Numbered from the stretch's first letter, positions 23,860 to 57,181 are shown. The stretch is 64,000 nucleotides of DNA from Candidatus Altimarinota bacterium (GCA_963677745.1 OY782391.1:32001-96000), one strand, 5' to 3'. The notes: generated by a model from the letters alone, not told the origin. Translations and numbers: made by a program.

Positions 23860-23887
23860 ATTTCGTACAAGATACATTATTCTGAAT
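23860..23887 (+). repeat. attL, dif-like 11-6-11 site
   Basis: ATTTCGTACAA GATACA TTATTCTGAAT; its first 19 nt match the right-end copy at 18 positions. Confidence 0.85.
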
Positions 23888-23900
23888 CTTGTTTTGATCT

Positions 23901-23933
23901 GCTAGGTCAATCGTTTACGATGACCTGGTTTTT
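23901..23933 (+). terminator. Intrinsic terminator-like hairpin just inside attL
   Basis: GCTAGGTCA-A-TCGT/ACGA-TGACCTGGT followed by a T run. Confidence 0.55.
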
Positions 23934-23981
23934 AATGGGCATGATGGGCATTTGCCGTTCCAGAACTCCATCATCACAATC

Positions 23982-24011
23982 ATTATAACTCACTAGGCCA
24001 CTAGAAGTCAA
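23982..24011 (-). promoter_or_regulatory. Sigma70-like leftward promoter pointing towards attL
   Basis: Minus strand TTGACT-N18-TATAAT. Confidence 0.45.
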
Positions 24012-24137
24012 GAGAATGTCAAGTAAAAGTAAACAAATACTTGGCGACGTGACTTTTAGGCCAAAATTAGCGTTTTGCGTTTCAAAAGTAACCAAGCACG
24101 TCGTCAGATACTTGGTTACTTTAACAAAAAATAAAAA

Positions 24138-24962
24138 ATGCAAAACATAGAAACAACCTTTACCGAGGGGGACAACATCATCAAAGAATACGCGACATTT
24201 GACCCGGAACGCGAGGAACAAAACAAGATCAACGCCAAAAACGCTGAGCTATTATTCAACGTCCCCTTTTTCCCTTATCAGATTAAGGTGCAAAAAGAGC
24301 ACGGGCTTTCTGATCTTGAAACAAAATTGTTTAGTTTTATTCAGTATTATGCCGGAGGGGGTGGGGAGTTTTACGCCTCAAACCCGAAGTTGGGGCAGTA
24401 TTTCGGCTGTCATAAAGACACGATTAGCACAGCGGTTGGTGTCCTGGCCAAAAAGGGGCTGGTAATAACTGGAATAAAGGTGCTCGGCAACGGGAATTCG
24501 GTCAGAAAATTGAGCGTAGGTGTAAACGCCGAGGGGGGTAGGTATAAACACCTAGGGGGGTCGGTGAAAACACCTAGGGTCATAGGTGAAAAGACCGACA
24601 TATATAAATTAAAAGAAATTAAAGTAAATACATCTCCTATCGGAGATACGGGCAAGGCCCCAAAAGAGACAAAAGAAATTCAAAAAAAACAGGAATACGG
24701 GAAGCCGGAAATTAACCAGATGCTTTCCGCCCTAAAAGCCAAGATCGGGGTCGAGGCATTCGCAGACAGCGGAATTGAAAGAAATATTGCACAGCATTGC
24801 ATCAACCTAATGGGCCGGATCGGTGTTAAGGAATTTTCCCGGCGGCTTGACTTAATTCTTGACGATGCTTTCAAACACAAAAACTGCAACCGCATTCGGT
24901 TCGTTTATTCGGAAATTAAGGGATTCATTGAGCCGGTCCGGCAGACGATCCCATCATTTTAA
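24138..24962 (+). CDS. Phage replication initiator (N-terminal winged HTH)
   Basis: LSDLETKLFSFI...FYASNPKLGQYFGC...IS.AV..L.KKGLV; internal iteron array as in lambda O. Confidence 0.75.
   Translation: MQNIETTFTEGDNIIKEYATFDPEREEQNKINAKNAELLFNVPFFPYQIKVQKEHGLSDLETKLFSFIQYYAGGGGEFYASNPKLGQYFGCHKDTISTAVGVLAKKGLVITGIKVLGNGNSVRKLSVGVNAEGGRYKHLGGSVKTPRVIGEKTDIYKLKEIKVNTSPIGDTGKAPKETKEIQKKQEYGKPEINQMLSALKAKIGVEAFADSGIERNIAQHCINLMGRIGVKEFSRRLDLILDDAFKHKNCNRIRFVYSEIKGFIEPVRQTIPSF
24517..24630 (+). repeat. Putative phage origin: four 22-bp-period iterons plus AT-rich tract
   Basis: TAGGTGTAAACGCCGAGGGGGG / TAGGTATAAACACCTAGGGGGG / TCGGTGAAAACACCTAGGGTCA / TAGGTGAAAAGACCGACA, then TATATAAATTAAAAGAAATTAAAGTAAATA. 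Confidence 0.8.
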
Positions 24963-24998
24963 AAAAACAAAAACAAAAACAAATTAATTTAAAATCAA

Positions 24999-25328
24999 AT
25001 GACAAAAGACATCGAAGTTAGACAGGAATTAATCAAGGTCCATTTAAAGGATCAGCGGACGCTGTATTTCCCGGCCACAAAGTACGCGGCTTTCTGCAAA
25101 GCTTTAAAAACAGACCAGTTTGTTGAGGTAGAGGGAATGTTAGTCAACCGCAATCTGATAATGACCGTCGAGCCGGAGCGAAACAAAGAAGATGTTCTAA
25201 TCAACCTGGACCCGGACATTCGCGAAGCCGCGCGCGAACGCTTTGCGCGTTTCAAGGCAGATCTGGGACGCTGGCCGAACACTAAGGAAAAACAAAAAAT
25301 TATTTTTAAAATACAAAACAACCAATGA
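24999..25328 (+). CDS. Phage hypothetical protein
   Basis: ORF directly after the initiator; ATGA overlap with the next ORF. Confidence 0.6.
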   Translation: MTKDIEVRQELIKVHLKDQRTLYFPATKYAAFCKALKTDQFVEVEGMLVNRNLIMTVEPERNKEDVLINLDPDIREAARERFARFKADLGRWPNTKEKQKIIFKIQNNQ

Positions 25329-25462
25329 ACAAATATAACGAAAAACAAAAAGAATTACTTTTATCAGTTTTGGAGGAATACGCGGAGGACGTTGTTTTCT
25401 TGAAAGCGGTTAATGCTTTGGCTTATGCCCTTATTCAATTAACCAAAGAGGACAAACGGTAA
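25325..25462 (+). CDS. Small phage protein (45 aa, MNKYNEKQKELL...)
   Basis: Own translation; ATGA coupling to the upstream ORF. Confidence 0.5.
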   Translation: MNKYNEKQKELLLSVLEEYAEDVVFLKAVNALAYALIQLTKEDKR

Positions 25463-25635
25463 TTACACTCCACAAATTCAGGGCAACAAAAAGGTGTGAC
25501 CAATGGTTTCGCTGCTCAAGGTGTCGGCTCGAGACTGACCGGCCAGAATCCTACTCACGAACGAATTGTCGGCCTAAAAGCATATTTGCCCCATTACATT
25601 ATTTGCATCACAAATCATTTCTTAACCACAAAAAA

Positions 25636-25981: not shown

Positions 25982-26266
25982 ATGGCAAAACACAAATTCG
26001 AAAAGGGCAATCCAGGTGGACCGGGGAGACCGAAAGGCTCCCTGTCCCTGGTGTCGATGTTAAAAGAAAGGCTTGAAAAAATCCCGGAAGGAAAAAAGAA
26101 AACCTACGCCGAACTTTTTATCGACAAGGTGCTTAAGAAATCCATAGACGACGAAGATGTCCAGGCAATGAGGGACGTTTTGAATCGCGTTGATGGTTTA
26201 CCCAAACAACCTTTGGACGTAGGCGGCGAGGTTAAGTTTATTGTCGAGCTGCATGATCGAGATTAA
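25982..26266 (+). CDS. terS: Terminase small subunit (DUF5681-like)
   Basis: KFEKGNPGGPGRPKGS N-terminal motif and RVDGLPKQ; precedes TerL. Confidence 0.75.
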   Translation: MAKHKFEKGNPGGPGRPKGSLSLVSMLKERLEKIPEGKKKTYAELFIDKVLKKSIDDEDVQAMRDVLNRVDGLPKQPLDVGGEVKFIVELHDRD

Positions 26267-27530
26267 ATTACCTTACAATTTGGATCTGGCTTCCCGACCA
26301 TTTCAGGGCGAGATTTTACGGGATCCGAGGAAAAACAAAGTCCTTATCATTCCGCGACGTCACGGCAAAACAACCCTTGCCATCGCAAAACTGGTCATGG
26401 AGGCAATCATAAACCCGAACAAGATTTATCATTATGTTTTCCCTTTCTACAAACAGGCAAAACAGGCCGTTTGGATCGCCCCGGACATGATTAATAAGCT
26501 GGTCCCGATGGAAGCCGTGTCACAAAAACACCAGGTCGATTTGATTATTTATTTTCATAACGGATCCCAGATTCACGTCAAAGGAGCTGATAACCCGGAT
26601 TCCCTGCGCTCTTTGGATTGTCACGGAGTTATCTTTGACGAGCCGGCCCAGATTAAACCCTCCATTTTCGACGAGATTTATTATCCAATCCTTGCCGCTA
26701 ATGGGGGGTGGAGCTGGTACGTTGGGACACCGAAAGGCAAAAATGCTTTTTATCAGAAATACATCACTTGCCGGAAAGACGAAAAGAATTGGCAAGTTGT
26801 CCACCTCAAAGCTTCAACTGCCGGGCTGTTTACCAAGGAGAATCTGGACAAAATCCGCTCCGAAATGACCCAGAAAGCGTTTGCACAAGAAATGGAATGC
26901 GAGTTTTTGGACGAATGCGGATCCCTGTTTCACCGGGTCCGGGAGAACGTCGGAGATACACTTGCAAGCCCGGAGCCGAACAAACAATATCTGATGGGGG
27001 TTGATCTGGCGAAATACTCAGATTTTACCGACATCACGATCCTTGACCGGCATAGTCACGAGGTTGTTCACCGGGACAGTTTCAACCAAATCGACTGGAA
27101 TTTGCAGAAAGCAAAAATCGAAAGTCTGGCCCGGAGATACAATAACGCAAAAATTCGCATCGATTCAACCGGGGTGGGGGATCCGATCACCGAAGATTTA
27201 ACCCGGGCTGGTTTGATCGTCGAGCCGTACAAATTCAACGCCACCAGCAAAAAGCAATTGCTGGAAAATCTGGTCATCATTTTGGAGGAATCAAAGGTCA
27301 AGATACCCAATGACCCCAATTTAATTGACCAATTAGAGGCCTACGAGGCATCAGTTAATGAAAGGACAGGGTCGGTCAGTTATAACGCGCCTGAGGGGCT
27401 CCACGACGACGCTGTTATCTCCCTGGCGTTAGCCTGTTGGAATCTTGGCCTTAAAATGACGATCGGAGCCGAGGGCAAGAAGTTTAATTTTTCTGTCAGT
27501 TACGACAAATTCGGCAGACCATCAATTTAA
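26253..27530 (+). CDS. terL: Terminase large subunit
   Basis: Walker A RRHGKT, Walker B VIFDE, GTPKG, nuclease domain GVDLA...HDDAVISLALA. Confidence 0.95.
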   Translation: MIEIKLPYNLDLASRPFQGEILRDPRKNKVLIIPRRHGKTTLAIAKLVMEAIINPNKIYHYVFPFYKQAKQAVWIAPDMINKLVPMEAVSQKHQVDLIIYFHNGSQIHVKGADNPDSLRSLDCHGVIFDEPAQIKPSIFDEIYYPILAANGGWSWYVGTPKGKNAFYQKYITCRKDEKNWQVVHLKASTAGLFTKENLDKIRSEMTQKAFAQEMECEFLDECGSLFHRVRENVGDTLASPEPNKQYLMGVDLAKYSDFTDITILDRHSHEVVHRDSFNQIDWNLQKAKIESLARRYNNAKIRIDSTGVGDPITEDLTRAGLIVEPYKFNATSKKQLLENLVIILEESKVKIPNDPNLIDQLEAYEASVNERTGSVSYNAPEGLHDDAVISLALACWNLGLKMTIGAEGKKFNFSVSYDKFGRPSI

Positions 27531-28046: not shown

Positions 28047-29936
28047 ATGCCCAACCCATCAAAAGATTTACAGAATCGGATTGTCTCCGAATTACTGGAA
28101 ACCTACAAAAACTATCAGGACTTGAATAAGACCCGAAATTCAAGGCTTTTGGAAATTTACAAGGCTTTTTCTACGTACAAAGAGGAAAGAAAGGCTGATT
28201 ATATGACCGATATTAAGGTCAACAAGGCCCACGAGGTCGTCGAAAGAGTGCTGCCCCGGATCATCGCCAAAAACCCCAGGTGGATTGTCACCCCAAAAAC
28301 AAATGACTTCTACCCCGAGCAAGCGTTACCGGCTTATAGTCCAGCGGATCCGGCCAGTATAGAGGCTTACAACAAAGCTCAGGCAGATAAACGCCAGAAA
28401 ACGACAGATTACAGCCGGGCAATTCAGGATTATTTGTCGTATATCTTCGACGAATACCATTTTGAGGACGCCATCAGGGGATTCGCCAAGCCGGGGATTA
28501 TTTATGGGAAGGCCCGGGCGAAAGTGGGTTACAAATACGAAACAATCAGAAATTTTGTTGAAATTGAGACTGAGGACGGCGAAACAAAGCGCGAAATTAA
28601 GGAGGACGTAACGGGAGAATATCCGTTTATTGACGTCAAGAGCTGGACCGAAACCCTGTCCGACCCAAGATTTAAAAACGTCCAGGATTCGCCGGCCGAA
28701 TTCGAAATTATCAACGGCGTGAGGCTGTCCGAACTGCGCAGAAAGAAAAAGGAATATTTCAACCTGGATAAATTAAAAGACGTCTGCGATCTGAAAGTAA
28801 TTAACGACGATCTGGATAAATACAAACAGCAAGTTATGACCACGGCCGGCATTTCAACAGTCGGCATTTCCAATCCAATTGATAAAAACGGCCTTTCGGT
28901 CCTCAAGGCTTACACGTTATTTGACGAAAAGGACGACGGCAACGACAGACTATTTGAGGCGACCATAATCCCGGATCTGCAAATTTTGATCGGGTGGAAA
29001 GAAATTACAAAAAAGCCGTTTGTCGATTTCAGGGTTTTCGAGGACATTGAGACAAACTTTGATATTGGCTTTGTTGAGCCGATAATTGGTTTGATGGACG
29101 AAATGTCTTTCCAGAAAAACGCTGCAATTAATTTCGTCAACCAGGCGTTAAACCGAACTTTTGTCTGGTCGCCAAACTCAAACATAGATCCCCGGGATCT
29201 GATTTCCAAACCTTACGGGGTTATCCCGACAACCGGCGACGTACAGACCGCCCTTATGAACTGTCAGGAATTACCGATGCGGCAGTTACCAAGCGATTAT
29301 TTCCAGCTCCAAAATGATATTGAACGTCAAATCCAGACCCAGACATTTACCGTTGATACTTCAAATCCGAAGTCACAACAGGCTTTGACCAATACCGCTA
29401 CCGGGGCCAGAATTGAATTTTTTGAATCCAACTCAGTATTGGATCAGGTGCGGAAAAACTTTGAATCCGCCCTGTCTCAGCTCGCTTATTTGCTGCTGCA
29501 AGAAGCTTTCGAAAACATGGGCGATAACATTGTGCTCAAAAAGCTTGGAGCCGAGGAATATTGGGAAATGAACAGGGAAGTTTTGCGAAATGCTGTCACC
29601 CGATACACGATCCAGGTTGAGGTTGGATCCTCAACTTACGATGACATCGCAAACCGCCGGGCCGATGCTATGGCCTTTTGGAATGTTTTATCACAAGCCA
29701 AGGACGCCGGGGAGCCGGTCAAGCTCCGATCCGCTGTTGAGGACATTGCCGCAACCTTTGAAAAGAAAGATTTGGCCAAGTATTACGACAATTCGGTCGA
29801 TATGGCCAAAATTGCAGATACTATGCCGGGAAACCCTGCGAAATTTAATAAGGCATCGATGCCTGAATTACCTCCAACCCCAGCCGAAATGACCCAAAAG
29901 GTCGCCGGTGGTGAGTTGTTAAGCGTTAATCAATGA
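28047..29936 (+). CDS. Portal protein (P22/podovirus-like)
   Basis: 629 aa after terL; TATGARI motif, G.VEPIIGL.DE...KN and I.VEVGSST. Confidence 0.85.
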   Translation: MPNPSKDLQNRIVSELLETYKNYQDLNKTRNSRLLEIYKAFSTYKEERKADYMTDIKVNKAHEVVERVLPRIIAKNPRWIVTPKTNDFYPEQALPAYSPADPASIEAYNKAQADKRQKTTDYSRAIQDYLSYIFDEYHFEDAIRGFAKPGIIYGKARAKVGYKYETIRNFVEIETEDGETKREIKEDVTGEYPFIDVKSWTETLSDPRFKNVQDSPAEFEIINGVRLSELRRKKKEYFNLDKLKDVCDLKVINDDLDKYKQQVMTTAGISTVGISNPIDKNGLSVLKAYTLFDEKDDGNDRLFEATIIPDLQILIGWKEITKKPFVDFRVFEDIETNFDIGFVEPIIGLMDEMSFQKNAAINFVNQALNRTFVWSPNSNIDPRDLISKPYGVIPTTGDVQTALMNCQELPMRQLPSDYFQLQNDIERQIQTQTFTVDTSNPKSQQALTNTATGARIEFFESNSVLDQVRKNFESALSQLAYLLLQEAFENMGDNIVLKKLGAEEYWEMNREVLRNAVTRYTIQVEVGSSTYDDIANRRADAMAFWNVLSQAKDAGEPVKLRSAVEDIAATFEKKDLAKYYDNSVDMAKIADTMPGNPAKFNKASMPELPPTPAEMTQKVAGGELLSVNQ

Positions 29937-30306: not shown

Positions 30307-30969
30307 ATGGCAGACACAAGTCAGTCTCCCGTTGCTGGGGAACAACCCGATAGGGATTCCACCACCAAGGCAACAGGGAAAGACCAAGACGAAAGTCAGG
30401 CGGAAACCAACGCTAAAAACATGGTAGAGATCGACGGCGAAAAAGTCTCCCTGGACCAGGTAAAAGAATGGAAAAAGGGACACATGATGGAAGCCGACTA
30501 TCGCAGAAAGACCCAAGAACTAGCCGAAGCGAAAAGGGAAATTGCCCGAGCCAAACAGGCCGGGGAAACCTCCCCAAGAGCCAAGGAAATGGATCCAGAG
30601 GTCAAGAAAGCAATAGAGATTCTCAAGGAGGCAGGCATGGCCACGAAAGATGATCTGCTGGCAATGAAAATCCAGGAGGAGGACCAGAAAGCATTTAGAA
30701 AGCTTTTAAAGTCAAATCCTGAATTAATCCCCCATAAAAAAGCCCTACAACAAATCGGGCTTACCGATAACCGGGCATGGGAGGACATCGCCAAAGATTA
30801 TGGATTCCTCAAAGATTCCAAACTGGAAAAAGCCAAAGCCGCAAAGCCGATTACTGGGGCAAGAATGGTCCCGGGTTCAGAAACCAAAGCGGTGGACATC
30901 GCAAAGATGACGCCCAAGGAATACGAATCCTGGAAAAAACAAAATTTAGGAGCGCGAAAGTGGCAATAA
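30307..30969 (+). CDS. Capsid scaffolding protein
   Basis: Acidic disordered N-terminus, EIDGEKVSL...ADYRRKTQELAE and C-terminal MTPKEYE.W; precedes the capsid gene. Confidence 0.8.
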   Translation: MADTSQSPVAGEQPDRDSTTKATGKDQDESQAETNAKNMVEIDGEKVSLDQVKEWKKGHMMEADYRRKTQELAEAKREIARAKQAGETSPRAKEMDPEVKKAIEILKEAGMATKDDLLAMKIQEEDQKAFRKLLKSNPELIPHKKALQQIGLTDNRAWEDIAKDYGFLKDSKLEKAKAAKPITGARMVPGSETKAVDIAKMTPKEYESWKKQNLGARKWQ

Positions 30970-31020
30970 ACAGGCGAAAACTTAGGATAAAGATTTACTA
31001 AATAATTTTTATCTTACAAT

Positions 31021-32229
31021 ATGGCTAATACGCTATCTGATGGCTTCAAGACAGTCTGGGCCAAGGAATATGAAACAATATTCTACAAGCTGAACGTCGC
31101 AAAACAAGTTTGTGATATGAGCTTCAAACCAGATCTCGCAAAAGGAAACACCCTGAAAAGAGTTTACCGCTCCGATCAGTCCGGCAATCTCCAAACTTAC
31201 GTTCGGGGAACTGCAATCACAATCAATGATGTTACCGATACCGCCGAATCCCTCACAATTTCCGCTCAGTTCGCTGATGGAATTTACAGAGACGATTTCG
31301 ACGCTATCCAGGACAACTACGATTTCGCCGCTTCTTATGGTAAGGACATCGCTACCTATTGCTCAAACCAGCTCGATGCTGACGTTTTGGGCGACTGGGA
31401 TCAGGCGACTTCTACTGTTGATGATGGCTCAATCGGTGGTACGTCCGGCAATGGTATCACCCTGACAACTTCCAATGTTCTCAAGGTGGTCGCTGCTGCA
31501 AAAAAGAAACTCAAGAAACAAAATGTCCCTGCCACCGAATTATTCGGTGTAATTTCGCCAGAATTTGAACAGGTACTTATCGAATATGGTGCTGGCCGCG
31601 ACACCAAGATGGGCGACGATGCAAACGAAGGGGGTAAAATCCTGAAATTTTACGATTTCGATTTGTATGTCTCCAATATGCTCGGCACTTCTGCCGTGCT
31701 GCAAATGGCTTCCGATCCCGGAGCCGGTGAAACCGTTGTCATCAATGGCGTTACCTTTACTGCTGCCAATCCTATTGGTGCTGTTGCCGGTAACTTCCTT
31801 GTTGGTACGTCTGCCGACGCTTCGCGTTTGGCCCTCGCAACCTTGATAAATGCTCCTGGAACTACAACCGCCGGTGGTGTTGCCGTTTCCGCTGCAAATC
31901 AAAGAAAGCTCCGCAATTGCAAAGCTACTGACGATGCTGCTTTGAACACCATGACCCTTGATTACAAAGGCTTGGGCGTTCTGACAGTATCGGAAACTTT
32001 GGCTGCTGCTGCTGATATCTGGACCCCTGCATTACAGAAACAGCATTGTCTGTTTGGTCGTAAGGGTGCTATTACGGCCGTTGTCCAGAAAGATCCGACC
32101 CCGGAAGTGAAAGAAGTGTCCGACAAGCTCGGTAAAAACGTGCTGGTTGGCATTCTCTATGGTTGGAAAACTTATGCCGACGGAGCCAAGGAATTGGTCG
32201 ATGTCGCATTGGATTCCTCAGCGTTCTAA
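31021..32229 (+). CDS. Major capsid protein (P22 coat-like) with inserted domain
   Basis: Position after scaffold, MANTL start, GNTLK, G.I..FYDFDLYVSN and C-terminal LYGWKT. Confidence 0.85.
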   Translation: MANTLSDGFKTVWAKEYETIFYKLNVAKQVCDMSFKPDLAKGNTLKRVYRSDQSGNLQTYVRGTAITINDVTDTAESLTISAQFADGIYRDDFDAIQDNYDFAASYGKDIATYCSNQLDADVLGDWDQATSTVDDGSIGGTSGNGITLTTSNVLKVVAAAKKKLKKQNVPATELFGVISPEFEQVLIEYGAGRDTKMGDDANEGGKILKFYDFDLYVSNMLGTSAVLQMASDPGAGETVVINGVTFTAANPIGAVAGNFLVGTSADASRLALATLINAPGTTTAGGVAVSAANQRKLRNCKATDDAALNTMTLDYKGLGVLTVSETLAAAADIWTPALQKQHCLFGRKGAITAVVQKDPTPEVKEVSDKLGKNVLVGILYGWKTYADGAKELVDVALDSSAF

Positions 32230-32240
32230 TTATCAACCGA

Positions 32241-32272
32241 GTGAGGGGGCGTGATAGGACGCCCAGTCTCAC
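32241..32272 (+). promoter_or_regulatory. Intergenic hairpin with GATAGG loop
   Basis: GTGAG..GGGCGT-GATAGG-ACGCCC..CTCAC. Confidence 0.5.
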
Positions 32273-32289
32273 CTAACCAAAATAAATAT

Positions 32290-47375: not shown

Positions 47376-47379
47376 ATAT

Positions 47380-47994: not shown

Positions 47995-48379
47995 AAAAAA
48001 CCGTTACTCGCAAACAATCCATCACGTCGTCCCAAGTTCCAGACGGGACGAGGGGTTTGACACTTCAAATAAACGCAATTTAAGGGATCTCCGCAAAACC
48101 TACCATGAAAACTGGCATCGTCTTTTTGCAAACAAAACGCCGGCTGAGATTATTGATTCGGTTGTCCAGATGCAGCACAATGTCATAAATCAAAAGGTCA
48201 GACGGGTAATTGAGGGGCTTTGCGATTTACCAAAATCTGATTTTTACATTCCAGACGTGTTGACCGAATATGCCGACGAAGATTTCGACCCGATGGACGT
48301 TGAGCTGGTCCGGGGAGAATTAAAAAAGCGGATCCAAGAATTACTTGACTGGATCGACGGTTTTAACGGTGATGTTTAG
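47987..48379 (+). CDS. HNH-like endonuclease
   Basis: TIHHVVPSSR...NL......H..WH.LF. Confidence 0.65.
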   Translation: MAKKNRYSQTIHHVVPSSRRDEGFDTSNKRNLRDLRKTYHENWHRLFANKTPAEIIDSVVQMQHNVINQKVRRVIEGLCDLPKSDFYIPDVLTEYADEDFDPMDVELVRGELKKRIQELLDWIDGFNGDV

Positions 48380-49241
48380 AGTGGATTTCCTGTAAATATT
48401 TGTCGGTAACGTGGGTATAAACCTGGGTTGTCGTTATTGAGGCGTGGCCCAAAAGTTGCTGAATTGCAGGCAGGGGAGCACCATTCCTTAAAAGCTCAGT
48501 TGCAAATGTATGGCGCAAACTATGGGGAGTAACTTTTTTCTTTATTCCGGCTTTCAGGGCGTAGGTTTTTACAATTATTTCGATCATCGCAACGCCCAGG
48601 CGTTTACCATTCCCGGAAACAAACAGCGCGTTTGATTTATCAGTCCTAAGGGACAAATACCGATCAAGACTTTTTCGGGCGACGTCCGAGATAAAAACAA
48701 GCCGATATTTTCGGCCTTTTCCTAAAACCCGGACATTGTTACTCAGCACATCGTCCCGATTCAAACTGGACAACTCCCGGACCCGGCAGCCGGTAGAATA
48801 CAAAACCCGGATTATCGCCGTGTTACGAATCGACCTGAACAAATCACAATCTTTTATCTCAAGTAATTTTTTCAGCTCCGGCATTTCCAAATAACACGGC
48901 TCCGGCCTGCTATATTTACAGGTTTCTATTTTATAGTATTTCAGCGTCGGGAAGTCCCGAATAAAACAAAATTTCAGAAATTGTCGGAGGACGATCAGGT
49001 GATACTGGACAGAGTTAAAACCGAGCCCCTTTTCCCTTAGTTTTAGGCGGAAACTATCAATATCCGAGCAATCTATCAGCTTTATATCTTTTCCCCGTAA
49101 AACCTCTAAAAACGCATATAAACAAGACTTGTAGTTTCTGAGCGTAAAAGGGGAGTAATTTTTGATAATTTCTAAATACTCTAGATATTTGTCAATCAAG
49201 TCAAGCACATGGTAAATCCGCCCGTCCACTATTTCACACAT
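48363..49241 (-). CDS. XerC/XerD-like tyrosine recombinase (probable integrase)
   Basis: YLEYLEI.KNYS..TLRNY SAM-like N-terminus; TGCRVREL, GKG.K.R, TPHSLRHTFAT and LLGH....TTQVYTHV. Confidence 0.92.
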   Translation of the reverse strand: MCEIVDGRIYHVLDLIDKYLEYLEIIKNYSPFTLRNYKSCLYAFLEVLRGKDIKLIDCSDIDSFRLKLREKGLGFNSVQYHLIVLRQFLKFCFIRDFPTLKYYKIETCKYSRPEPCYLEMPELKKLLEIKDCDLFRSIRNTAIIRVLYSTGCRVRELSSLNRDDVLSNNVRVLGKGRKYRLVFISDVARKSLDRYLSLRTDKSNALFVSGNGKRLGVAMIEIIVKTYALKAGIKKKVTPHSLRHTFATELLRNGAPLPAIQQLLGHASITTTQVYTHVTDKYLQEIHSKHHR

Positions 49242-49266
49242 ATTTAAACAAAGATTAAATAATTTA

Positions 49267-49434
49267 TTACAAATTTATTAACTTTTGTTTGGATATTGTT
49301 TTTGCGAGCGTAATTATTTCGTCTGCCTGGTCGGTCCCGACTGCATCGTTTAATTGGTCGAAAATTTCGATCATAGAAAGTGTCAGCTCCAACGCCTTGA
49401 GTTTTAAGACGTGAATTTTTTGTTTATTTGTCAT
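49267..49434 (-). CDS. Small phage protein (55 aa)
   Basis: Own translation MTNKQKIHVLKLKALE...; fills the gap in the leftward operon. Confidence 0.4.
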   Translation of the reverse strand: MTNKQKIHVLKLKALELTLSMIEIFDQLNDAVGTDQADEIITLAKTISKQKLINL

Positions 49435-49621
49435 CTGGTTTGTGAAGTTTAAAGGTGGATTTTCTAAGCCGGATCCTGTTTAGAATAATGACCCTCGTTT
49501 TTGGGGTAGGTTGGCAGGGATTGTCCAGGGGATTTGCCGTCCTTAGCGAGCAGTTTTGACATTCCAAAACATCGAATCCTTCGGAGGTTTTAAATCCTGT
49601 CAGGATAAATCGGTGTTTCAT
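49424..49621 (-). CDS. Small phage protein with CxxC
   Basis: ORF track; ATGA-coupled to the upstream ORF. Confidence 0.45.
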   Translation of the reverse strand: MKHRFILTGFKTSEGFDVLECQNCSLRTANPLDNPCQPTPKTRVIILNRIRLRKSTFKLHKPDDK

Positions 49622-49791
49622 GGCATTAAAAGGGTTAAACCCTCGCGCGAGATCATTGTTTTTCTGTCCGATCTGGACAGGTGGTTTCGCAGCCTGAATT
49701 CGTTGATTTTTAAGATTGCATAGAACGCCTGTTTGGAGACGCCTAAATATTTTGCCGCCATTTCGGCGTCAAACCATCGTTTTGGTTTCAT
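49618..49791 (-). CDS. Excisionase-like HTH protein (57 aa)
   Basis: Own translation MKPKRWFDAEMAAKYLGVSKQAFYAIL..., a Xis/HTH_17 pattern; near the recombinase. Confidence 0.6.
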   Translation of the reverse strand: MKPKRWFDAEMAAKYLGVSKQAFYAILKINEFRLRNHLSRSDRKTMISREGLTLLMP

Positions 49792-49801
49792 AAGTTTTGG
49801 A

Positions 49802-49999
49802 TTATTTTATTTTTTGTTTAGCGAGCCATTTAAGCGATTCCCTTGCGAGTTTTAACTTTTGTCGGTTGTTTTCGAGTGTTCGGGGATTGGGTCTGATCCC
49901 AACCTGGTAAATTTGCCATTCTAAATGCTCGATTCTTTCCTTTAAAAGATATTTTAAGAGTGCTTTTGGGTTGTCGATTGGCTTTGTTTTTGGTGTCAT
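49802..49999 (-). CDS. Phage hypothetical protein
   Basis: ORF in the leftward operon. Confidence 0.5.
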   Translation of the reverse strand: MTPKTKPIDNPKALLKYLLKERIEHLEWQIYQVGIRPNPRTLENNRQKLKLARESLKWLAKQKIK

Positions 50000-50344
50000 T
50001 TTTTGTTTGATAAGAAAATTTGACGATTTGGGTTGGCGTGAGCCCGGTTTCAGCCTGAATGAAAAGGATCGGGGCGTTCTTTCTAAGCAAGTCGAAAAGA
50101 CGCTCCCGGGTTTCGGTGAGCATTTTGTTTTTTTGGTTATATGTTAATGAAAGGGGAGAAAAATTAACGGGGGAGGTCTGTCATGTTAATTGCGGCTAAC
50201 TTGTTTTTTCCAATTCTTTCTTGGCTTTTTCAAGATCATCGGCAAGATACCTCAACGCGAAAATGTGTTCGTCCAGGGAATCGCAAAACCGCTGGGCGTT
50301 AATCACGGTGGCCAATAACAATAAGAATTTTTGAGTGTTTTCGT

Positions 50345-50749
50345 TCATTTTTTTGGGGTTAATAAATCCGAGTTTTCGTATATGTTTCCGATAAGTTCAA
50401 TGTCATAATCATAAAACTCACCTGCCCTATCCCGATATGTCGAAAGGGGGAAATACAACACAGAATTGTTGAACGCCCAAGTGTATTGATTGTATTCAAT
50501 GGCAAGGACTTTCCATTCAAAGTCGGGTTCTCCATGCTTCCAGTTTTCTTTCAGATTGTTTATGCGAACAAGGTCGCCTTCAAAAATTTCTTTTCCGTTT
50601 TTGTCGGTCAGGCCGGTAAACTGCATATAAACACAGTCAATAGTCGGATCAACGGCCGGCCTGATTCTGATTGCCTGTTCAAGGGAAAAAGGCTCTCCCA
50701 TTGTTTTGTCTGCCTTATTCCAAGCTCTAAATTTTATCGTTCTGGTCAT
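50345..50749 (-). CDS. YopX-family protein
   Basis: IKFRAW, MQFTGL.DKNGKEIFEGD and IGNIYEN. Confidence 0.92.
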   Translation of the reverse strand: MTRTIKFRAWNKADKTMGEPFSLEQAIRIRPAVDPTIDCVYMQFTGLTDKNGKEIFEGDLVRINNLKENWKHGEPDFEWKVLAIEYNQYTWAFNNSVLYFPLSTYRDRAGEFYDYDIELIGNIYENSDLLTPKK

Positions 50750-51044
50750 TGGTTGGTTGATTAATTGGTTTGATTTGGACTTCCAGATCTACAAGATATT
50801 TTTTTAGTAAAAAAATCGTTTTCGGATTCTGATAATCAAGCTGGTTGGCCTTGATCTGGTTACAGGTTTTGCATAGAAAGCGGAAGTTTTCGGCATCTTC
50901 GTAAACCGCGTCGATCTGCAGAAGTTGCCGCATTAATTGGACCGGGATAATATGATCGACTGTTTCAGCTTGGCGGCCGCATGGACAAAGATGGGTTTCC
51001 GCTTCTTGCTGCCAAAGAAACAGTTTGGAGTGTTTCTTTTTCAT
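50727..51044 (-). CDS. HNH endonuclease
   Basis: CPCG...TVDHIIP...N...LCKTCN..K. Confidence 0.85.
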   Translation of the reverse strand: MKKKHSKLFLWQQEAETHLCPCGRQAETVDHIIPVQLMRQLLQIDAVYEDAENFRFLCKTCNQIKANQLDYQNPKTIFLLKKYLVDLEVQIKPINQPTNDQNDKI

Positions 51045-52521
51045 TTATTTGTAGGTGTCAAGAATACCTTTTCTGATAGCTTCCCATTGTTCCTCGGTCA
51101 ATACCACGTCCAGCAGGCCAGTCGTAATTATCGGCTGGGGGATTTCAGCCATACCCTCTCTACGATTTGACCAATGGTTTTGGTGTTCCTCGTATTCTTG
51201 CCGCTGGGCATCGTATTTGGGATTATCTTCTTGTTTTGTGATTCGCAATTTGTAGTACATATTTTGGGGGTTAATTTGGATTATTTTTAATCGACTTTGA
51301 ACGTGTTCAAAATTTCCTCGGCTCTTTTTAAACTGTGCAGGTCGGATTGGAATTTTTCTATTGCCTGAGCTAAAACATTTTGAACAGAATCTCTTTGCAT
51401 AATTTTCTGGTGCGGCAATAGGGGGACTTTAGGCAGTTTTATGGAGCTGGGTTTGGGACCACTTCGGGGGTTAGGCAGTCCGGCTGCCTTACGTTTTGCC
51501 CACCAGGCTTTTTTTGCGGCCGCCTGCCTTTCCCTGGCGGACGTTGGGTTATCAGTTCCCATTTCCCCGGGATCCGATTCGTCAATAACATCGCTTTCAA
51601 ATTTAGCCTGTTGTCTCCGGGCTGGGGCAGTCATCATAAGGTATTGACGCCGGACCTCCATATAAAGGGATTTGTCGTCGGCCAGTTCACATTCAAGCGC
51701 ATCAAAGCTGGTCAGTCCGTCCAAAACACGTTTCGCGTGGTGTTTCGCTTTGTTTTCCCGTTCTTCGGACGCTCTTTCTTCTTCGTTTTTAGTCATTGTT
51801 TATTTCGTTAAAAGTTGGACTTCGGTCGGTGTCGGCATAGGGCTCGATCAGTTTATAGGCCGCATCGATCCGGCCCCGGGCATGAGCTGTAACGTCGTTA
51901 ATTTCCTTAAATAAAACGACCTCGCCCGATTCCAGCCGGCAGATAAGCTCTTTTGTGCAGGTCAGGGTTTGGGCCAGTTCGTCCTTGGCGTCCTGGTTGT
52001 TTGTTTGGTCAAACAGTTCTTGAGCTTCCGCATGGTGAGCATAAAGGCTGTCTAAAGGGTTTTTCATGGTTTTATTAGTGAATGAATTATGCGACGAAAC
52101 CAATTTCCCGGGAGGGGCTTTCCTTTTAAAAGGCCGACGGCTGTTTTTGTTCGCCTGATTGCCGCAACTCGGACCGTTGACCTGGTGGATTTTAGAGCCT
52201 TCCGATATTTGTTTCGTTTTGTAGGATCCTTTGGGGTTTTGATAAATCGAGCCCCTTTATTTTGGGTTGTTTTCATCTTAGGTTTTTAAGTGTTTCATTA
52301 AGCAAGTAACGGATCAGGTCAATTTCGCTTTCTATGCGATAACCTTCATAGGAAGCGGCCTCAGCGGTGGCCAAAACGTCCCGGGCTCTTTCAAGCCGGC
52401 ATTCATTATCGTGCCGAAGCCGGCCGGCCGGTTGTTCCTCGATGATGTCCTGGACCCGGGCAATTTCTTGTCTCGCTTCCTCCAATTCGGGTTTGATAAA
52501 GGATAGGGATAATTGGGTCAT
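51045..52521 (-). other. Run of small early-region hypothetical genes (51045-51260, 51287-51796, 51789-~52067, 52064-52276, 52273-52521)
   Basis: Tightly packed, often stop/start-overlapping minus-strand ORFs; no family recognised. Confidence 0.55.
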
Positions 52522-52715
52522 TCTTCTGGTTTGTAACAGTATAAAAAGCCGTAGTCGTTGGTTGCCGTCTTGCCACCTATTTCCTTGCAGTTAGAAAGTT
52601 CTGCAAGGTTTAATTGATGTCGTTTGGCTTGTAATTCCTCCCTTGTTTCGAGAGTTGAGCAGCCAAAAAGAAAAAGGGCCGTTGCCGCTAAAAGAAAAAT
52701 TACTTTTTTGGGCAT
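52518..52715 (-). CDS. Small lipoprotein
   Basis: MPKKVIFLLAATALFLFGC lipobox. Confidence 0.6.
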   Translation of the reverse strand: MPKKVIFLLAATALFLFGCSTLETREELQAKRHQLNLAELSNCKEIGGKTATNDYGFLYCYKPEE

Positions 52716-52883
52716 TTGATTGGCTTAATTTTTAAGTGAGCAAGGCGGTAGCCGGCGAGCGGCCAGTTGTGTTTCTCAGTTAGGGCAAGCCTGCGTGAAA
52801 GGAAAACGTCAGTCGGTATTCCATTAGGTAAAATTAAAAACCAAAGATGCCATTGTTTAACTTTTTTCATAAATTTTGTTTGT

Positions 52884-53222
52884 TTAAGAATATTGTTTGA
52901 TAATTTCGATAGCTTCGTCTGCCCCGTAGCAAATATGGGCGGCCACGTTGTCGCATTTATTCAGATCGTCGATCCATATTTGTTGGGTGTCGCTGACTTT
53001 GCTTTGTTTTCGTCGTTTCATTTCAATAAAAACAAGACTGTCTTTGACAATCACCAGTAAATCGGGCAGTCCGGGGCGTAAGCCCTGCCGATAGTTTTTA
53101 GCCTTTTGGGCGTTGCTGGTGGTGTAGGTTGAATTGGGGATCGCGGTAAACTTAAACCCGTTATATTCCAGCCATTCGACAAACGCTGCCTGTTCCTCGG
53201 CCTCTTTTGGTGTTTCATTCAT
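52884..53222 (-). CDS. VRR-NUC domain nuclease (Holliday junction resolvase-like)
   Basis: EQAAFV.WL, G..PGLPDL, FIEMK and S..Q..W. Confidence 0.88.
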   Translation of the reverse strand: MNETPKEAEEQAAFVEWLEYNGFKFTAIPNSTYTTSNAQKAKNYRQGLRPGLPDLLVIVKDSLVFIEMKRRKQSKVSDTQQIWIDDLNKCDNVAAHICYGADEAIEIIKQYS

Positions 53223-53503
53223 GGCCGGAGGGTTAGAATGTCTGGAAAAAGATCATAAAGTTTTCTTGCCTGGACAACCGATTGTCGAGCTGCCTTTTTT
53301 TTGTGTAATTTTGCATGGCATTTAGAGCAGCAAATTAAAAGGTTGTCTTTATGATTCAAATTCGGGTGTTTGGGGGCTTCGGAGCGGAAAACAATATGAT
53401 GGACTTCCCAAAAGAATGTCCGGCTTGTTCCGCACATCTGGCAGCTTAGAAACCCCTGTTGATCGATCAGTTCTTTCTTGGCTTCCGCTGCCGTTTCTAG
53501 CAT
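53219..53503 (-). CDS. HNH endonuclease
   Basis: CQMCG...EVHHIVFRS...NL...CSKCH..LH. Confidence 0.88.
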   Translation of the reverse strand: MLETAAEAKKELIDQQGFLSCQMCGTSRTFFWEVHHIVFRSEAPKHPNLNHKDNLLICCSKCHAKLHKKKAARQSVVQARKLYDLFPDILTLRP

Positions 53504-53972
53504 TGGTCGAGCGGTTTAATTGTGACCTCGAAATGCATATTTTCCGGGTAGGCTTCCAACCCGATCACCTGGGCAAACAAAGCGCGCTCGACTTCCATTT
53601 CGACGCCTATCTGGCCCCGGTTTTTTAGGGATTTGTTGTTCTTAACCAACACCTCGTTGGTGATAAATTTAATTTCTTGCATTGAAAATTTTTGTTATGT
53701 GTTAATTTTTGGGTAAATCTGCCTTATGCCGCATGATTCGATACACCAAATCACTTGGGCGTTGATCTTTTCAGCGGTGCGGATTGCCTCGTTTTCATAA
53801 TGAGATTCAAAAACGATTTGTCCGTCCTTCCGCACCTGGTATGAATTGGCCTCAAGGTCGGCCTGGTCGCGCTTTTTTTGTGATTCCTCCCAGATTTTCC
53901 GTTCCTGTTTGTCTTTCAGGCTTTCGGCTTCTGCGCCCTGCCATTGCTCAAACTTTTGTGTTTTTTTGGTCA

Positions 53973-54119
53973 TCAAGTTGTTGTTATTGGTGGATCCTCG
54001 GAAAGTAGTCCTTTACTTTTCAGGTATGCAATATGGGGGGAGGGCTTGGCCGGGACATAACGGCAGTTCCCCATTTTCTTTGCATTTTTCGCCCTCCGCC
54101 TATCTGCTCTATTTGTCAT
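53973..54119 (-). CDS. Small arginine-rich-motif protein (48 aa)
   Basis: Own translation MTNRADRRRAKNAKKMG...; its TGA overlaps the ATG of the next gene. Confidence 0.5.
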   Translation of the reverse strand: MTNRADRRRAKNAKKMGNCRYVPAKPSPHIAYLKSKGLLSEDPPITTT

Positions 54120-54642
54120 CAATTATTTGGTTAAAGTGTTTTTTGAGCGACGTTCGGGACGGGGCAGCTTGAGCCGGAGCAGGGGAGATTCAATTGTCCG
54201 TCAAACGTGACGTGTCCACGGACCTGACGGGCGAAACAATAGGTCAGCGGCAAACCCTCGTTATGCGCCTGGACAAAGTCCCAGCCGCAAGGTGCGGAGG
54301 CGTTACCGAGCCAGAAAAGAGCGACGAACATGGAAGCGATTAGTTTTTTCATTTTGATTGGGTTAATGAAATAAAAACTATTCACGAAATTTAATGCCCC
54401 AAATAAAAACTGTAATTGAGGCGGCGGCGAGCAGGGTCGCCAGTAGTGCGAAGCCAAACAGGGCAGCGGAAATTGTGTAAGTGATAAACATTAAGTAAGC
54501 TCCCCAAACGCAATTAAATAAAAGCAGGGAAAGCGTGCATGAGTGGATAGCGAATTTCATTTTGTTTTGGTTATTAATTAAGACGCCCGGGGCTGGCCCG
54601 GGTCGGGTAGGGCTGGTCAAGCCCCTTTGATTACGGTTGAAA

Positions 54643-55176
54643 CTACGGGAACAAAATCATGTTTTTTACTTTCGCGCGCCGGTTATAGCCGCAAAACTTC
54701 TTTTTTCCGCATGAAGTCGTCCAGTCTGGCTGGTTATAGACTTTCCAATGATATTCAGCGATTTCTTTAATCGAGATTTCCTTTTTCAGGATCCGGGCGA
54801 TCATTTCCTTATGGTAATAAGAATTCAGCCCGAAAGAATAATCCCAGCTCCCGTCCCGGTTGCGGTTCGGGTGTTTGATAAACGGGTCGAAACTTCCGTT
54901 TTCCGCTGCCATTGTCAGGATAAAGTCTTTATCTCCGCCGGAGACTTCCCAGAATATTCGGAGGGCATCTTGGGCAATCGCTCCTTTCCAGCTTCGGAAT
55001 ACTGGAAAGTTATTAACTGGGTTATCGTCTCCGATAAGGCCAACAGCTCCTTTATCAGGTTGTAGTGCGCCCGGAGCGTTCGCCAAATCATCACTTGCCC
55101 CGTCCCCAGGCAAAGAATCGCCAGGGCGAGAAATGACAGCAGAATTTCCATCGGAAGAGGGGTTAAAGTTTAACAT
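54643..55176 (-). CDS. Lysozyme-like / lytic transglycosylase domain (probably expressed as a frameshift fusion)
   Basis: TMAAENG with candidate catalytic Glu, NRDGSWDYSFGLN; starts with a disordered linker. Confidence 0.6.
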   Translation of the reverse strand: MLNFNPSSDGNSAVISRPGDSLPGDGASDDLANAPGALQPDKGAVGLIGDDNPVNNFPVFRSWKGAIAQDALRIFWEVSGGDKDFILTMAAENGSFDPFIKHPNRNRDGSWDYSFGLNSYYHKEMIARILKKEISIKEIAEYHWKVYNQPDWTTSCGKKKFCGYNRRAKVKNMILFP

Positions 55177-55205
55177 GCCGGTTTTCGGCTTAGCCGGCGT
55201 GCCGG

Positions 55206-55523
55206 TTAAAAAGAACAGTCCTGGTCCCGTTTCTTGGCCAGATCGTTTCTGTCGATGTTTTCAAGTTTCACCCCGTTCATATCATCTTCGAGTTTAAGAG
55301 AAGCTAAATTTTTTATTAATTCGCATCTTTTAACAGCGGTTTCATGCTCGAAATTTTCGAGGATTAACTGAGCAGCAGGGGATTGGGCCTGATAATTGTC
55401 TTTCGCCTGGACATCAGGTTGAGATATCCAAATATAAGCGCAGAAAGCCAGGACGACGATTGCCGTCAGTCCGATTACATTTTGCTTAATAGATAAGCCG
55501 TTTTTTGTTTTTTCAGTATTCAT
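55206..55523 (-). CDS. Single-TM membrane-anchored protein
   Basis: Basic N-terminus, TM helix, helical region; ends TCT TTT TAA. Confidence 0.65.
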   Translation of the reverse strand: MNTEKTKNGLSIKQNVIGLTAIVVLAFCAYIWISQPDVQAKDNYQAQSPAAQLILENFEHETAVKRCELIKNLASLKLEDDMNGVKLENIDRNDLAKKRDQDCSF

Positions 55524-55527
55524 TGTT

Positions 55528-55710
55528 TTATTTTTTAGTGGTTAATTTCCTTGCTGCTCTGTTGCAGCGATCGCAGCCGCTAACTTGCCAAGGTTCGTAA
55601 ACCTTTTCCCCACAATAGCGACATTCGTAGGGGGACATTGATAGGCGGCATTCAAAGCATTTGGTTTCCCAAATTCTTAAAGAATTGCCGCATTTACAGG
55701 TTCTAATCAT
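55528..55710 (-). CDS. Small Cys-rich zinc-finger protein
   Basis: Four Cys pairs in 60 aa. Confidence 0.5.
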   Translation of the reverse strand: MIRTCKCGNSLRIWETKCFECRLSMSPYECRYCGEKVYEPWQVSGCDRCNRAARKLTTKK

Positions 55711-56060
55711 GGCAAATTGAATTATGTTGCCTGACGTTGTTCTGGATCTGGTTTAGGGATTCGACCTGATGGACAAGCCGGAAAACCTGTTCAAAGTCCA
55801 GGGGATTGGTAATGTCGGCCAAATTTGATTTGACCTTTTGTTGATCTTGCATGATAATTGTTGGTGAATGAATGATTAAGGCCGTTTGCAGACGGTCTTT
55901 TTTAGTGCGCCATCGCTGGCGCGTGGTATTTGCAAAGCATTTCGCGACCCTGATCTTCGCCGTCGTCATCGTAAATGACGGCTTCGGTGACAGCGTGATT
56001 TTTGCAATTGGGAAAGTCGCAGGCGACATAGTCGCCGGCATCTTGTAATTTGTGCATAAT

Positions 56061-56732
56061 TTAGAAGTTAGGAGGTGAAATATCGCGGTCCGGGACGACA
56101 ATGTCGTTTAACCAAAGTTCTTTATCGGTTGCGGATCCGTCTTTTGGAGCGCGGTAATAAACCCTATCGCCGTTCTTAACTACTGCATACCAGGATCGGC
56201 CCTCAAAAGCCCCGGTTACCATATCGTTACCGTCTTTGTCCTTGCCCTGGTAAGTCCAGTATTTATTCTTTCCTTCCCGGGCCTGTTTTGCGGCTCTAGT
56301 AGGGGAATTGCCGTCCTCTTTTTGGTCATCTTTCTGGGTGTTTTTCCAGACATCTTTGCCTATTTCCAGATAGGAGCCAATCTTGGTGAGGGCATCGGTC
56401 ATGGCCCCTTTCAGGGCGTCGCCCTTGTCCTCGTTGTCGTTTCCACCAAACTGTTCAAGCTCGATGTCATATTCTTGGACGGTAAAAGTTGCCTTGACAG
56501 TAAGCATTCGGGAAACTTTTTGCTCACCTTGTTTTGTCGTATATTCGCGATTTTCCTCGCCCAAACATTCGGCCTTTAATTTCCAGCCGCCTATTCCAAA
56601 CACTTGGTTTAGACGTTCGGTTACATAGATGGCGTTAATTGAGGAAAGGTGTCGTTTGGTCGGGTGCGGTTTGATTGCTTCGGGCGGTAAAGGCTCTCGA
56701 AGCATCGCCGCCAGATTTTCAGGTAGTTTCAT
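56061..56732 (-). CDS. Rad52/Sak-like single-strand annealing protein
   Basis: LREPLP, YVTERLNQVFG..GW and KGAMTDAL.K....L.IG. Confidence 0.85.
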   Translation of the reverse strand: MKLPENLAAMLREPLPPEAIKPHPTKRHLSSINAIYVTERLNQVFGIGGWKLKAECLGEENREYTTKQGEQKVSRMLTVKATFTVQEYDIELEQFGGNDNEDKGDALKGAMTDALTKIGSYLEIGKDVWKNTQKDDQKEDGNSPTRAAKQAREGKNKYWTYQGKDKDGNDMVTGAFEGRSWYAVVKNGDRVYYRAPKDGSATDKELWLNDIVVPDRDISPPNF

Positions 56733-56800
56733 TGGATTAATTGGTTACAGAAAAAGACCTGTCATTGAGGCAGGGGCAATTTCTTTCGTTTATAGAGGCT

Positions 56801-57049
56801 TTACGCCTTTTTTGTGTAGCGATTCCCAGTCTTGCGATTAGGGAAGCTATAACGGGATTTGCGTTTAAAAGCGTCCATTTTGGCTAACAGTTCAGGCGCA
56901 AACCTTGCAGCGAGCGTATAATTTAGAAGCTCGGTAATGGTGGTCTGATCTTGGACAGCCTTTTTTTTCATAGAATCAATAATCGACCTATGAATTCGGA
57001 ATCGACTTTCTTTCGCGTCCTCCCGTGGGAACAGTCCGATTATTGGCAT
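56801..57049 (-). CDS. Ribbon-helix-helix-like DNA-binding protein (candidate regulator)
   Basis: SRFRIHRSIIDSMKKKAVQDQTTITELLNYTL pattern; first gene of the leftward operon. Confidence 0.55.
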   Translation of the reverse strand: MPIIGLFPREDAKESRFRIHRSIIDSMKKKAVQDQTTITELLNYTLAARFAPELLAKMDAFKRKSRYSFPNRKTGNRYTKKA

Positions 57050-57075
57050 AAGAGATGGAAATTAATTTGTTGGTA

Positions 57076-57104
57076 TTGACCGCATGGCGGCTGCGGAATA
57101 TAAT
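57076..57104 (+). promoter_or_regulatory. Near-consensus sigma70 promoter pointing out through attR
   Basis: TTGACC-N17-TATAAT. An overlapping minus-strand TTGCAA-N16-TATTAT (57127-57100) could drive the leftward operon. Confidence 0.65.
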
Positions 57105-57153
57105 ATCACCGTATTTGATCTTTGCAATCCAGGGATTCCCAGACTTCTCTAGC

Positions 57154-57181
57154 ATTTCGCACAAGATACATTGTGCAAAAT
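57154..57181 (+). repeat. attR, dif-like 11-6-11 site
   Basis: ATTTCGCACAA GATACA TTGTGCAAAAT; the arms are inverted repeats matching at 10 of 11 positions. Confidence 0.88.

Follow-up and report, generated by a model that had tools for sequence, protein, structure and literature searches.

The prophage locus and its flanking sites

The DNA stretch analyzed here, referred to below as the window, comprises 64 kb (positions 32001-96000) of the single-contig 1,335,835-bp genome G000 of a Candidatus Altimarinota bacterium, and it carries a prophage that is inserted between recG and a convergent host gene without known family. Coordinates are positions in the window, unless a prefix refers them to the whole chromosome or to another contig. 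An original prediction, which was made from the sequence alone, had described a tailed prophage integrated at a dif-like Xer site with 28-bp sites of the 11-6-11 type (two 11-nt arms around a 6-nt spacer) at both phage/host boundaries, and both sequences read exactly as stated there. The subjects of the current study are this site, which is very likely the chromosomal dif of the host, and the phage that occupies it together with the Xer-family recombinase that it encodes. The components of the locus on which the argument is built are the following (aa, amino acids):

21414-23453, plus strand: host recG, the conserved left neighbor of the candidate dif
23860-23887, plus strand: attL, consisting of the left arm of the candidate host dif ATTTCGTACAA, the spacer GATACA and the phage-derived degenerate right arm TTATTCTGAAT
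23888-57153: prophage body, a repeat-to-repeat unit of 33,294 bp, documented by Pfam and PHROGs matches and by the related phage contig G041
48363-49241, minus strand: phage Xer-family tyrosine recombinase of 292 aa (PF00589, 5e-38; PF02899)
57154-57181, plus strand: attR, consisting of the phage-derived left arm ATTTCGCACAA, the spacer GATACA and the host right arm TTGTGCAAAAT; the putative regenerated intact dif
57224-58888, minus strand: host protein of 554 aa without known family, the right neighbor of the candidate dif

The two attachment (att) sites share a 19-nt core with one Y position, which has two matches in the window versus 0.00 expected from 100 shuffles, and a scan of the whole genome with either 28-mer, allowing up to seven mismatches, retrieves attL and attR as the sole places. 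The arms of attR deviate from a perfect inverted repeat at one of 11 positions and the right arm of attL agrees with the dif right arm at seven of 11 positions (both hand counts), in keeping with the near-perfect palindrome that had been reported for attR and the single degenerate arm reported for attL and attP. A single mismatch separates attR from the family consensus presented below. The two sites differ only over the whole right arm and at one position of the left arm, the seventh, where attL has T and attR has C; this is the pattern expected after a crossover inside the 6-bp spacer.

Inverted repeats of the 11-6-11 type with at most one arm mismatch are common in this genome (65, versus 10-13 in three shuffles) and mostly terminator-like, so that the weight rests on the particular sequence and its context. 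Palindromy alone is ordinary; distinctive are the specific sequence, its duplication at both phage/host borders and its conservation in relatives. Among 36 genomes of the family, the second half-site is restricted to G000, and extra copies of the degenerate arm do not exceed chance (three matches, 2.6 expected). The attL junction is present, at full word share, in five sequencing runs from two studies. Four of these runs, two per study, were examined as contigs, and each harbors one contig that passes through attL; they contain no attB or attP form, which is uninformative on excision since contigs drop rare variants.

A candidate dif in the host lineage

The empty counterpart of the site is present in relatives of the host. 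Homologues of the 554-aa protein are convergent to recG in eight of 40 relatives, and in all eight the two genes are adjacent without such an insert. All 11 recG loci of relatives that were fetched harbor the site, with at most three mismatches, between or beside recG and its neighbor. The original prediction had proposed to look for the empty site in related genomes between recG and the gene at 57224, and this is where the phage-free relatives have it. The consensus ATTTTGCACAA-GATACA-TTGTGCAAAAT matches 28 of 41 genomes with up to three mismatches and in exactly one place each, including 22 of the 24 genomes of the same family, for which it provides the candidate dif that had been envisaged for this lineage, and five of the 16 that represent other families of the order. 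The control with the reversed pattern yields 0 matches in all 41 genomes. Of the 27 relatives that possess the site, 22 have it downstream of recG and on the recG strand, at a distance of 27 bp to 3.4 kb; in the remaining five, recG and the site reside on separate contigs. The majority frequency across 11 genomes amounts to 0.96 over the 28 bp and drops to 0.48 and 0.51 in the 40-nt flanks. The consensus arms form a perfect palindrome, the spacer reads GATACA in 20 of the 28 genomes (hand count), and its asymmetric sequence keeps the same orientation across genomes. The second copy in G000 is the attL made by the prophage; otherwise there is a single copy per chromosome, and the uniqueness of the motif, which had been named as a point to be checked, is documented by the genome scan with up to seven mismatches and by its single occurrence in every one of the 28 genomes with a match. 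About 10 nt past the right arm of the site we observed the sequence TCAAA (57192-57196), which is partly conserved at +11 to +15 in 11 relatives (L002-L012) and may be an accessory element or a part of the terminator of the neighboring gene.

A dif site is defined as a sequence of about 28 bp with two 11-nt inverted repeats around a 6-nt spacer (PMC8371274). The site in G000 is intergenic, between the convergent genes for RecG and the 554-aa protein, and has a G+C content of 9/28 (0.32, hand count) in a genome of 0.474. The lineage consensus equals E. coli dif at 19 of 28 positions (hand count; PMC2731167), and the E. coli string quoted in the original prediction is the reverse complement of the K12 dif printed in that paper.

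The chromosomal position of the site is that of a terminus, the location of which rests on detrended GC skew and not on measured replication. A two-level fit with the prophage cut out yields two switches in G000, one at 30 or 56 kb, with the site at 55.86 kb, and another at 678 kb. The opposite switch is sharp and falls in a 342-bp AT-rich gap between divergent genes directly upstream of dnaN (G000:C1:711177-711518), which by its sequence is an origin-like arrangement; the resulting replichores have sizes of about 680 and 622 kb. Another example is the closed genome G020 (1,492,597 bp), which belongs to another genus and harbors the site at 653,593, within a skew change point of 622-664 kb. 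Its skew is about -0.02 up to about 640 kb and about -0.10 after 660 kb, and it switches back at dnaN (1,360,493). The comparison with the skew terminus, which the original prediction had left for a later check, thus locates the site, in two closed genomes from separate genera, at a terminus-type switch that lies opposite to a dnaN-linked one. It is normal for dif to be displaced from the skew extreme by tens of kb (PMC2731167, PMC9765430). The net excess of C over G on one strand extends along the whole chromosome of G000, and the same two-level pattern is found in G020; a stronger skew of this kind is described for some Microgenomates in PMC7143001, in which Peregrinibacteria are called typical.

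The genome encodes three proteins with a PF00589 domain; in addition to the phage Xer, these are the host Xer (319 aa; gene at 880 kb) and a protein of 270 aa (gene at 239 kb). The closest public relatives of the 319-aa Xer (65-73% identity) stem from metagenome-assembled genomes (MAGs) labelled Peribacteria, Peregrinibacteria or Patescibacteria, which identifies the host as a bacterium of the candidate phyla radiation (CPR) from a Peregrinibacteria-like group. The 319-aa Xer reaches a score of 222.2 on the NCBIfam XerA equivalog model (cut-off 220); the XerD and XerC models give comparable values, which are below their own cut-offs. Thirteen of the 40 relatives, including genomes rated 100% complete, contain only one PF00589 gene, thus indicating that the core system uses a single Xer; these one-recombinase relatives and the perfectly palindromic consensus arms fit the single symmetric Xer that had been postulated for the host. 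An FtsK with gamma domain is encoded in the host lineage. The 270-aa tyrosine recombinase (G000:C1:238714-239526, outside the window) resembles XerA and integron integrases and is located 5 kb from dnaA; recombinases of comparable size are present in some relatives only.

The empty site, its single copy, its conservation, the skew position and the presence of Xer and of the FtsK gamma domain all support the interpretation of the site as host dif that was put forward at the outset. The site has passed every sequence test, and we regard its identity with the chromosomal dif as very likely, with the function deduced from these tests.

The phage, its recombinase and its attP

The xer gene of the prophage was overlooked in the original prediction. 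It is the sole integrase candidate of the element by sequence, and searches against Pfam and PHROGs revealed no match to other recombinase families in the prophage. The protein comprises a SAM-like N-terminal domain (PF02899) and a catalytic domain (PF00589) that includes the residues R-K-H-R-H-Y, which have catalytic roles in this family; its motifs GCR, GKGRKYR, HSLRH, LGH and VYTH have aligned counterparts in the host Xer and XerA. With 236.1 bits, the phage Xer exceeds the cut-off of the NCBIfam XerA (XerA_Arch) equivalog (220), and it stays below those of XerC (234.3 versus 335) and XerD (228.4 versus 330). Among solved structures, the closest to the phage Xer are XerA (5HXY, 6e-39) and E. 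coli XerD (1A0P). The sequence identity is 40% with the 319-aa host Xer, over the full length including the C-terminal tail, 30% with the 270-aa host recombinase and 83% with the equivalent in the related phage G041. In the Xer tree, which comprises 23 rows including one 60-aa fragment, the two phage proteins form a long branch that does not belong to the clade of the host family but to an unresolved group, together with Patescibacteria-type Xers. This position is indicative of a homologue and not of a recent copy or capture of the host Xer.

Among 50,697 records of deposited phages, 1101 match the phage Xer, all with less than 60% identity; 218 of them cover at least 80% of the query, and the closest homologue reaches only 38% identity. 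Xer-like integrases are hence common in phages, and the gene alone is ordinary, whereas its target and the mimicry are not. A metagenome scan with an alignment of the two phage Xer sequences found nothing, and among the assembled genome contigs only one relative with 38% and one with 33% identity were detected. The former (L023) exhibits no convincing dif-like site. This MAG contig of 20,891 bases has a G+C content of 26% and contains only nine open reading frames (ORFs) of at least 100 codons in translation table 11 over 21 kb; it probably uses an alternative genetic code.

The form of attP is documented by the IMG/VR contig G041 (35,949 bp), which represents a circular permutation of the prophage and corresponds to window positions 46253-57173 followed by 23860-44659. 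At the join in the middle of the contig, the attR-side flank (65/68 identical) is followed by ATTTTGTACAA-GATACA-TTATTCTGAAT and then by the attL-side flank, and the degenerate arm of this attP is identical to that of attL at 11 of 11 positions. The architecture of the attP that had been reconstructed from the prophage, with a dif-type arm, the same spacer and a degenerate arm, is accordingly present in a related phage. G041 may be a circular, concatemeric or tandem form, each of which would show the hybrid site. The 21-nt sequence of spacer and degenerate arm retrieved nothing in the metagenome scan or from the assembled genome contigs, and in viral contigs it was found only in the already known G041.

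Two IMG/VR contigs, L025 (43,972 bp; site at 5223-5250) and L029 (59,985 bp; site at 6182-6209), carry ATTTTGTACAA-GATACA in front of an AT-rich divergent right arm and may represent recombinase-less dif mimics or chance matches. The viral contigs that match the 19-nt core (L025, L026, L027 and L029) are incomplete and harbor no tyrosine recombinase, and they were not used as evidence. By a rough, unchecked estimate, a collection as large as this one should contain a few chance matches to the 19-nt core.

The gene organization of the prophage follows a simple layout, with late and structural genes on the plus strand and early and recombination genes on the minus strand, where xer is the last gene of the early block. 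Apart from xer, the following features were identified:

26241-27530, plus strand: terminase large subunit (PF03237, PF17289; phrog_2, 3.5e-35)
28047-29936, plus strand: probable portal protein of 629 aa, assigned by gene order after the terminase alone, with no family match
30307-30969, plus strand: scaffold (group matches to phrog_3927, phrog_267 and phrog_673 across 30307-32739)
31021-32229, plus strand: major head protein (same PHROGs set; phrog_267, 1.1e-22)
32251-32739, plus strand: scaffold-like ORF (same PHROGs set)
34425-35087, plus strand: SU10-type head-tail adaptor (PF24175, 3.9e-17)
35080-44427, plus strand: large putative virion/tail proteins of 686, 817, 111, 953 and 518 aa (PF05257, PF13313), the 953-aa protein with a CHAP domain
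45402-46232, plus strand: KilA-N/BstA-like protein (PF04383, 2.8e-25; phrog_6287, 4e-60)
47380-47994, plus strand: endolysin, N-acetylmuramoyl-L-alanine amidase (PF01520, 3.7e-17; phrog_435)
49830-57049, minus strand: early leftward block with Rad52-like, VRR-NUC, two HNH, YopX and small ORFs
56061-56732, minus strand: Rad52-like annealing protein, within the early leftward block

The matched modules of tailed phages comprise terminase, head, scaffold, SU10-type adaptor, amidase and recombinase, while the portal and the tail type are assigned indirectly. Judged by this gene content, the element is a temperate tailed phage (Caudoviricetes) of 33 kb. No prophage protein matches the tape-measure, tail-tube or sheath families of Pfam and PHROGs, and together with the SU10-type adaptor this probably speaks for a short tail; the designation as podovirus is plausible for the same reasons and falls short of being established. 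The capsid has no relative among the 50,697 deposited phage records, and distant capsid relatives with 51% identity (L114-L116) were set aside as short fragments without a site of this type. The only stretch of the prophage that is unmatched in G041 (44660-46250, corresponding to the ends of that contig) contains a 170-aa ORF and the KilA-N protein. The latter matches phrog_6287, the BstA abortive-infection family, and its gene is probably defense cargo. In the host part of the window, the listed GTG start of the obg ORF (15753-17234) overlaps the gene for tRNA-Leu(CAA) on the other strand (15696-15782) by 30 nt, and the real start is probably located further downstream.

Probable integration at dif and related systems

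The most likely explanation, which we hold with reasonable though not full confidence, is an integration of the tailed phage in the host dif that is driven by the phage Xer via an attP mimicking dif. The dif would be the single-copy terminus site where the host Xer, assisted by FtsK, resolves chromosome dimers. The attP would mimic it by combining a dif-type arm with a degenerate one around the same 6-bp spacer, GATACA, and strand exchange would take place within the spacer, most likely catalyzed by the phage Xer, which we infer to be the integrase because it is the only candidate, intact and conserved in both phages. Integration would leave an intact dif as attR, so that dimer resolution would be kept, and a crippled attL, the degenerate arm of which should stop the host Xer and FtsK from deleting the prophage at each division. 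Stabilization by a modified flanking dif is described for the Legionella element LME-1 (PMC9765430) and for the gonococcal island (PMC5357621), for which the link between the modified site and stability has been demonstrated; by analogy with these elements, the degenerate arm is inferred to protect the prophage from deletion.

Several observations do not favor this explanation. The searches yielded a single related phage with this attP, which makes two phages of this kind in all. The xer gene is located 7.9 kb from attP and hence not adjacent to it, and many phages with other target sites encode Xer-like integrases, as illustrated by the 1101 matching records. With up to three mismatches, the consensus is missing from two of the 24 same-family genomes, which are fragmented, and from 11 of the 16 that belong to other families. 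Without correction, the cumulative GC skew of G000 declines monotonically owing to a net excess of C on one strand (mean skew -0.078), and the two levels of about -0.13 and -0.03 translate into extremes only after this mean is removed. The fit is near-equal at 30 and 56 kb and cannot choose between them. Furthermore, dnaA is located at 233.5 kb (G000:C1:233548-234030), about 478 kb from the origin-like switch, E. coli-type DnaA boxes do not cluster at this switch in G000, and gene orientation in G000 is without replichore bias. Both the function of the site as dif and the identity of the acting recombinase are computational deductions.

Some of the alternatives concern the division of labor between the two recombinases. 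The phage Xer might bind the degenerate arm and the host Xer the dif-type arms in a mixed complex, with both proteins needed in one synapse. Such a complex is conceivable since the homology of the two proteins (40% identity) extends over the whole sequence with the C-terminal tail, the arms of attP are of both kinds, the degenerate one being identical at 11 of 11 positions in two phages, and the host Xer has to be capable of binding three arms out of four in the synapse. We nevertheless consider it unlikely, because the degenerate arm resembles the dif arm at seven of 11 positions and one protein could bind both, as ordinary integrases do on imperfect core sites; the long branch of the phage Xer outside the clade of the host family and the chance-level number of degenerate arm copies (3 versus 2.6) also argue against it. 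The corresponding proposal of a helper Xer, according to which a phage Xer paralogue specialized for the degenerate arm and the host protein on the dif arms would act in one synapse, integration would be independent of FtsK and attL would be invisible to the FtsK-activated host Xer, so that the prophage could reside right at the terminus and escape deletion, has only a small chance of being correct. Finally, the phage could be a true IMEX (an integrative mobile element that exploits Xer), which is integrated by the single Xer of the host, like the CTX, VGJ and TLC phages and LME-1, and uses its own Xer for another purpose, such as the resolution of phage genome multimers or excision only. The att architecture is of the IMEX type, with a dif-like arm and spacer, a degenerate arm and a regenerated intact dif (PMC5357621, PMC9765430), and the location of xer apart from attP also speaks for it. 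The retention of an intact Xer-type recombinase that is 83% conserved between two phages, the lack of any other integrase in the prophage and the description of known IMEX as elements without own recombinase in the accessible texts make this scenario rather improbable, a shade more so than the mixed complex. As the phage has a Xer of its own, the analogy to elements exploiting the host Xer that the original prediction had implied is probably apt only in part.

The remaining alternative questions the site itself, which might be another conserved palindrome downstream of recG, such as an operator, a terminator or an old attB, with the true dif elsewhere or absent. The abundance of 65 palindromes of the 11-6-11 type in the genome, the atypical skew of the lineage and the tight linkage to one gene, which is unusual for dif according to PMC2731167, would be compatible with this view. 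It is very hard to reconcile with a single-copy site that is conserved across genera while its flanks are not, whose asymmetric spacer keeps its orientation and which equals E. coli dif at 19 of 28 positions. The dnaN-linked switch opposite to the site in two closed genomes and the lack of a GC-rich stem with a T run likewise contradict it, and no other dif-like candidate was seen in the genome; of all scenarios this is by far the least probable.

The site provides a testable candidate dif, linked to recG, for an uncultivated Peregrinibacteria-like family and a part of its order, and it marks the terminus in closed CPR genomes whose raw cumulative skew is uninformative. As a tailed phage of 33 kb that encodes a Xer homologue, the prophage widens the range of elements at dif, and it represents a rare resolved pair of temperate phage and host in the candidate phyla radiation. 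If the helper proposal were true, it would define a new class of Xer-exploiting elements with a lysogeny built on the dimer-resolution system of the host, and the candidate phyla radiation would have its first defined dif/Xer system. In the literature searched, with partial coverage and supplements excluded, filamentous phages, microphages, double-jelly-roll phages, islands and LME-1 are reported at dif, and we found no tailed phage with its own Xer and no account of dif or chromosome dimer resolution in Patescibacteria.

The integration at dif, the regeneration of an intact dif and an attP composed of a conserved arm, the spacer and a divergent arm are shared with IMEX such as CTX, VGJ, TLC, the gonococcal genetic island and EludIMEX-1 (PMC5357621). 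These elements exploit the host XerC/XerD, are described as having no integrase of their own and are mostly small non-tailed phages or islands, whereas the present element is a tailed phage of 33 kb that encodes a Xer homologue, and its host uses a single Xer. As the phage encodes a recombinase, which IMEX by definition lack, it is not classed as IMEX; its architecture is IMEX-like and probably driven by the phage Xer. The arm-domain-less two-domain recombinase of about 290 aa is in turn common to temperate tailed phages with XerC/XerD-like integrases. The usual targets of such phage integrases are tRNA genes or other loci, and the element differs from ordinary temperate tailed phages in its target, the putative chromosomal dif, which is mimicked by attP. 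The combination of one Xer with a dif of the 11-6-11 type corresponds to XerS/difSL, XerH/difH and archaeal XerA/dif (PMC2731167, PMC8371274), and both the host and the phage Xer exceed the NCBIfam XerA cut-off (222.2 and 236.1 versus 220). In contrast to these single-recombinase systems, the putative dif described here has recG as its linked gene, and the xer gene of the host lies elsewhere, at 880 kb.

The closest precedent is LME-1 with XerL in Legionella (PMC9765430), from which the present case differs in several respects. LME-1 is treated as an IMEX that uses the host XerL, and the present phage carries its own Xer-family gene; the present host belongs to the CPR; its arms are like those of canonical dif, whereas those of Legionella are said to be without homology to known Xer-binding motifs; and XerL was studied in a heterologous two-plasmid recombination assay in E. 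coli, whereas the evidence for the present case is computational. Common to both is a phage-like element in a conserved single-copy dyad site near the skew inflection of a host with a single Xer, with an att site that is a partial dif and an integrated form flanked by one intact and one modified dif. In both cases, it is the att site of the element that reveals the single-recombinase dif.

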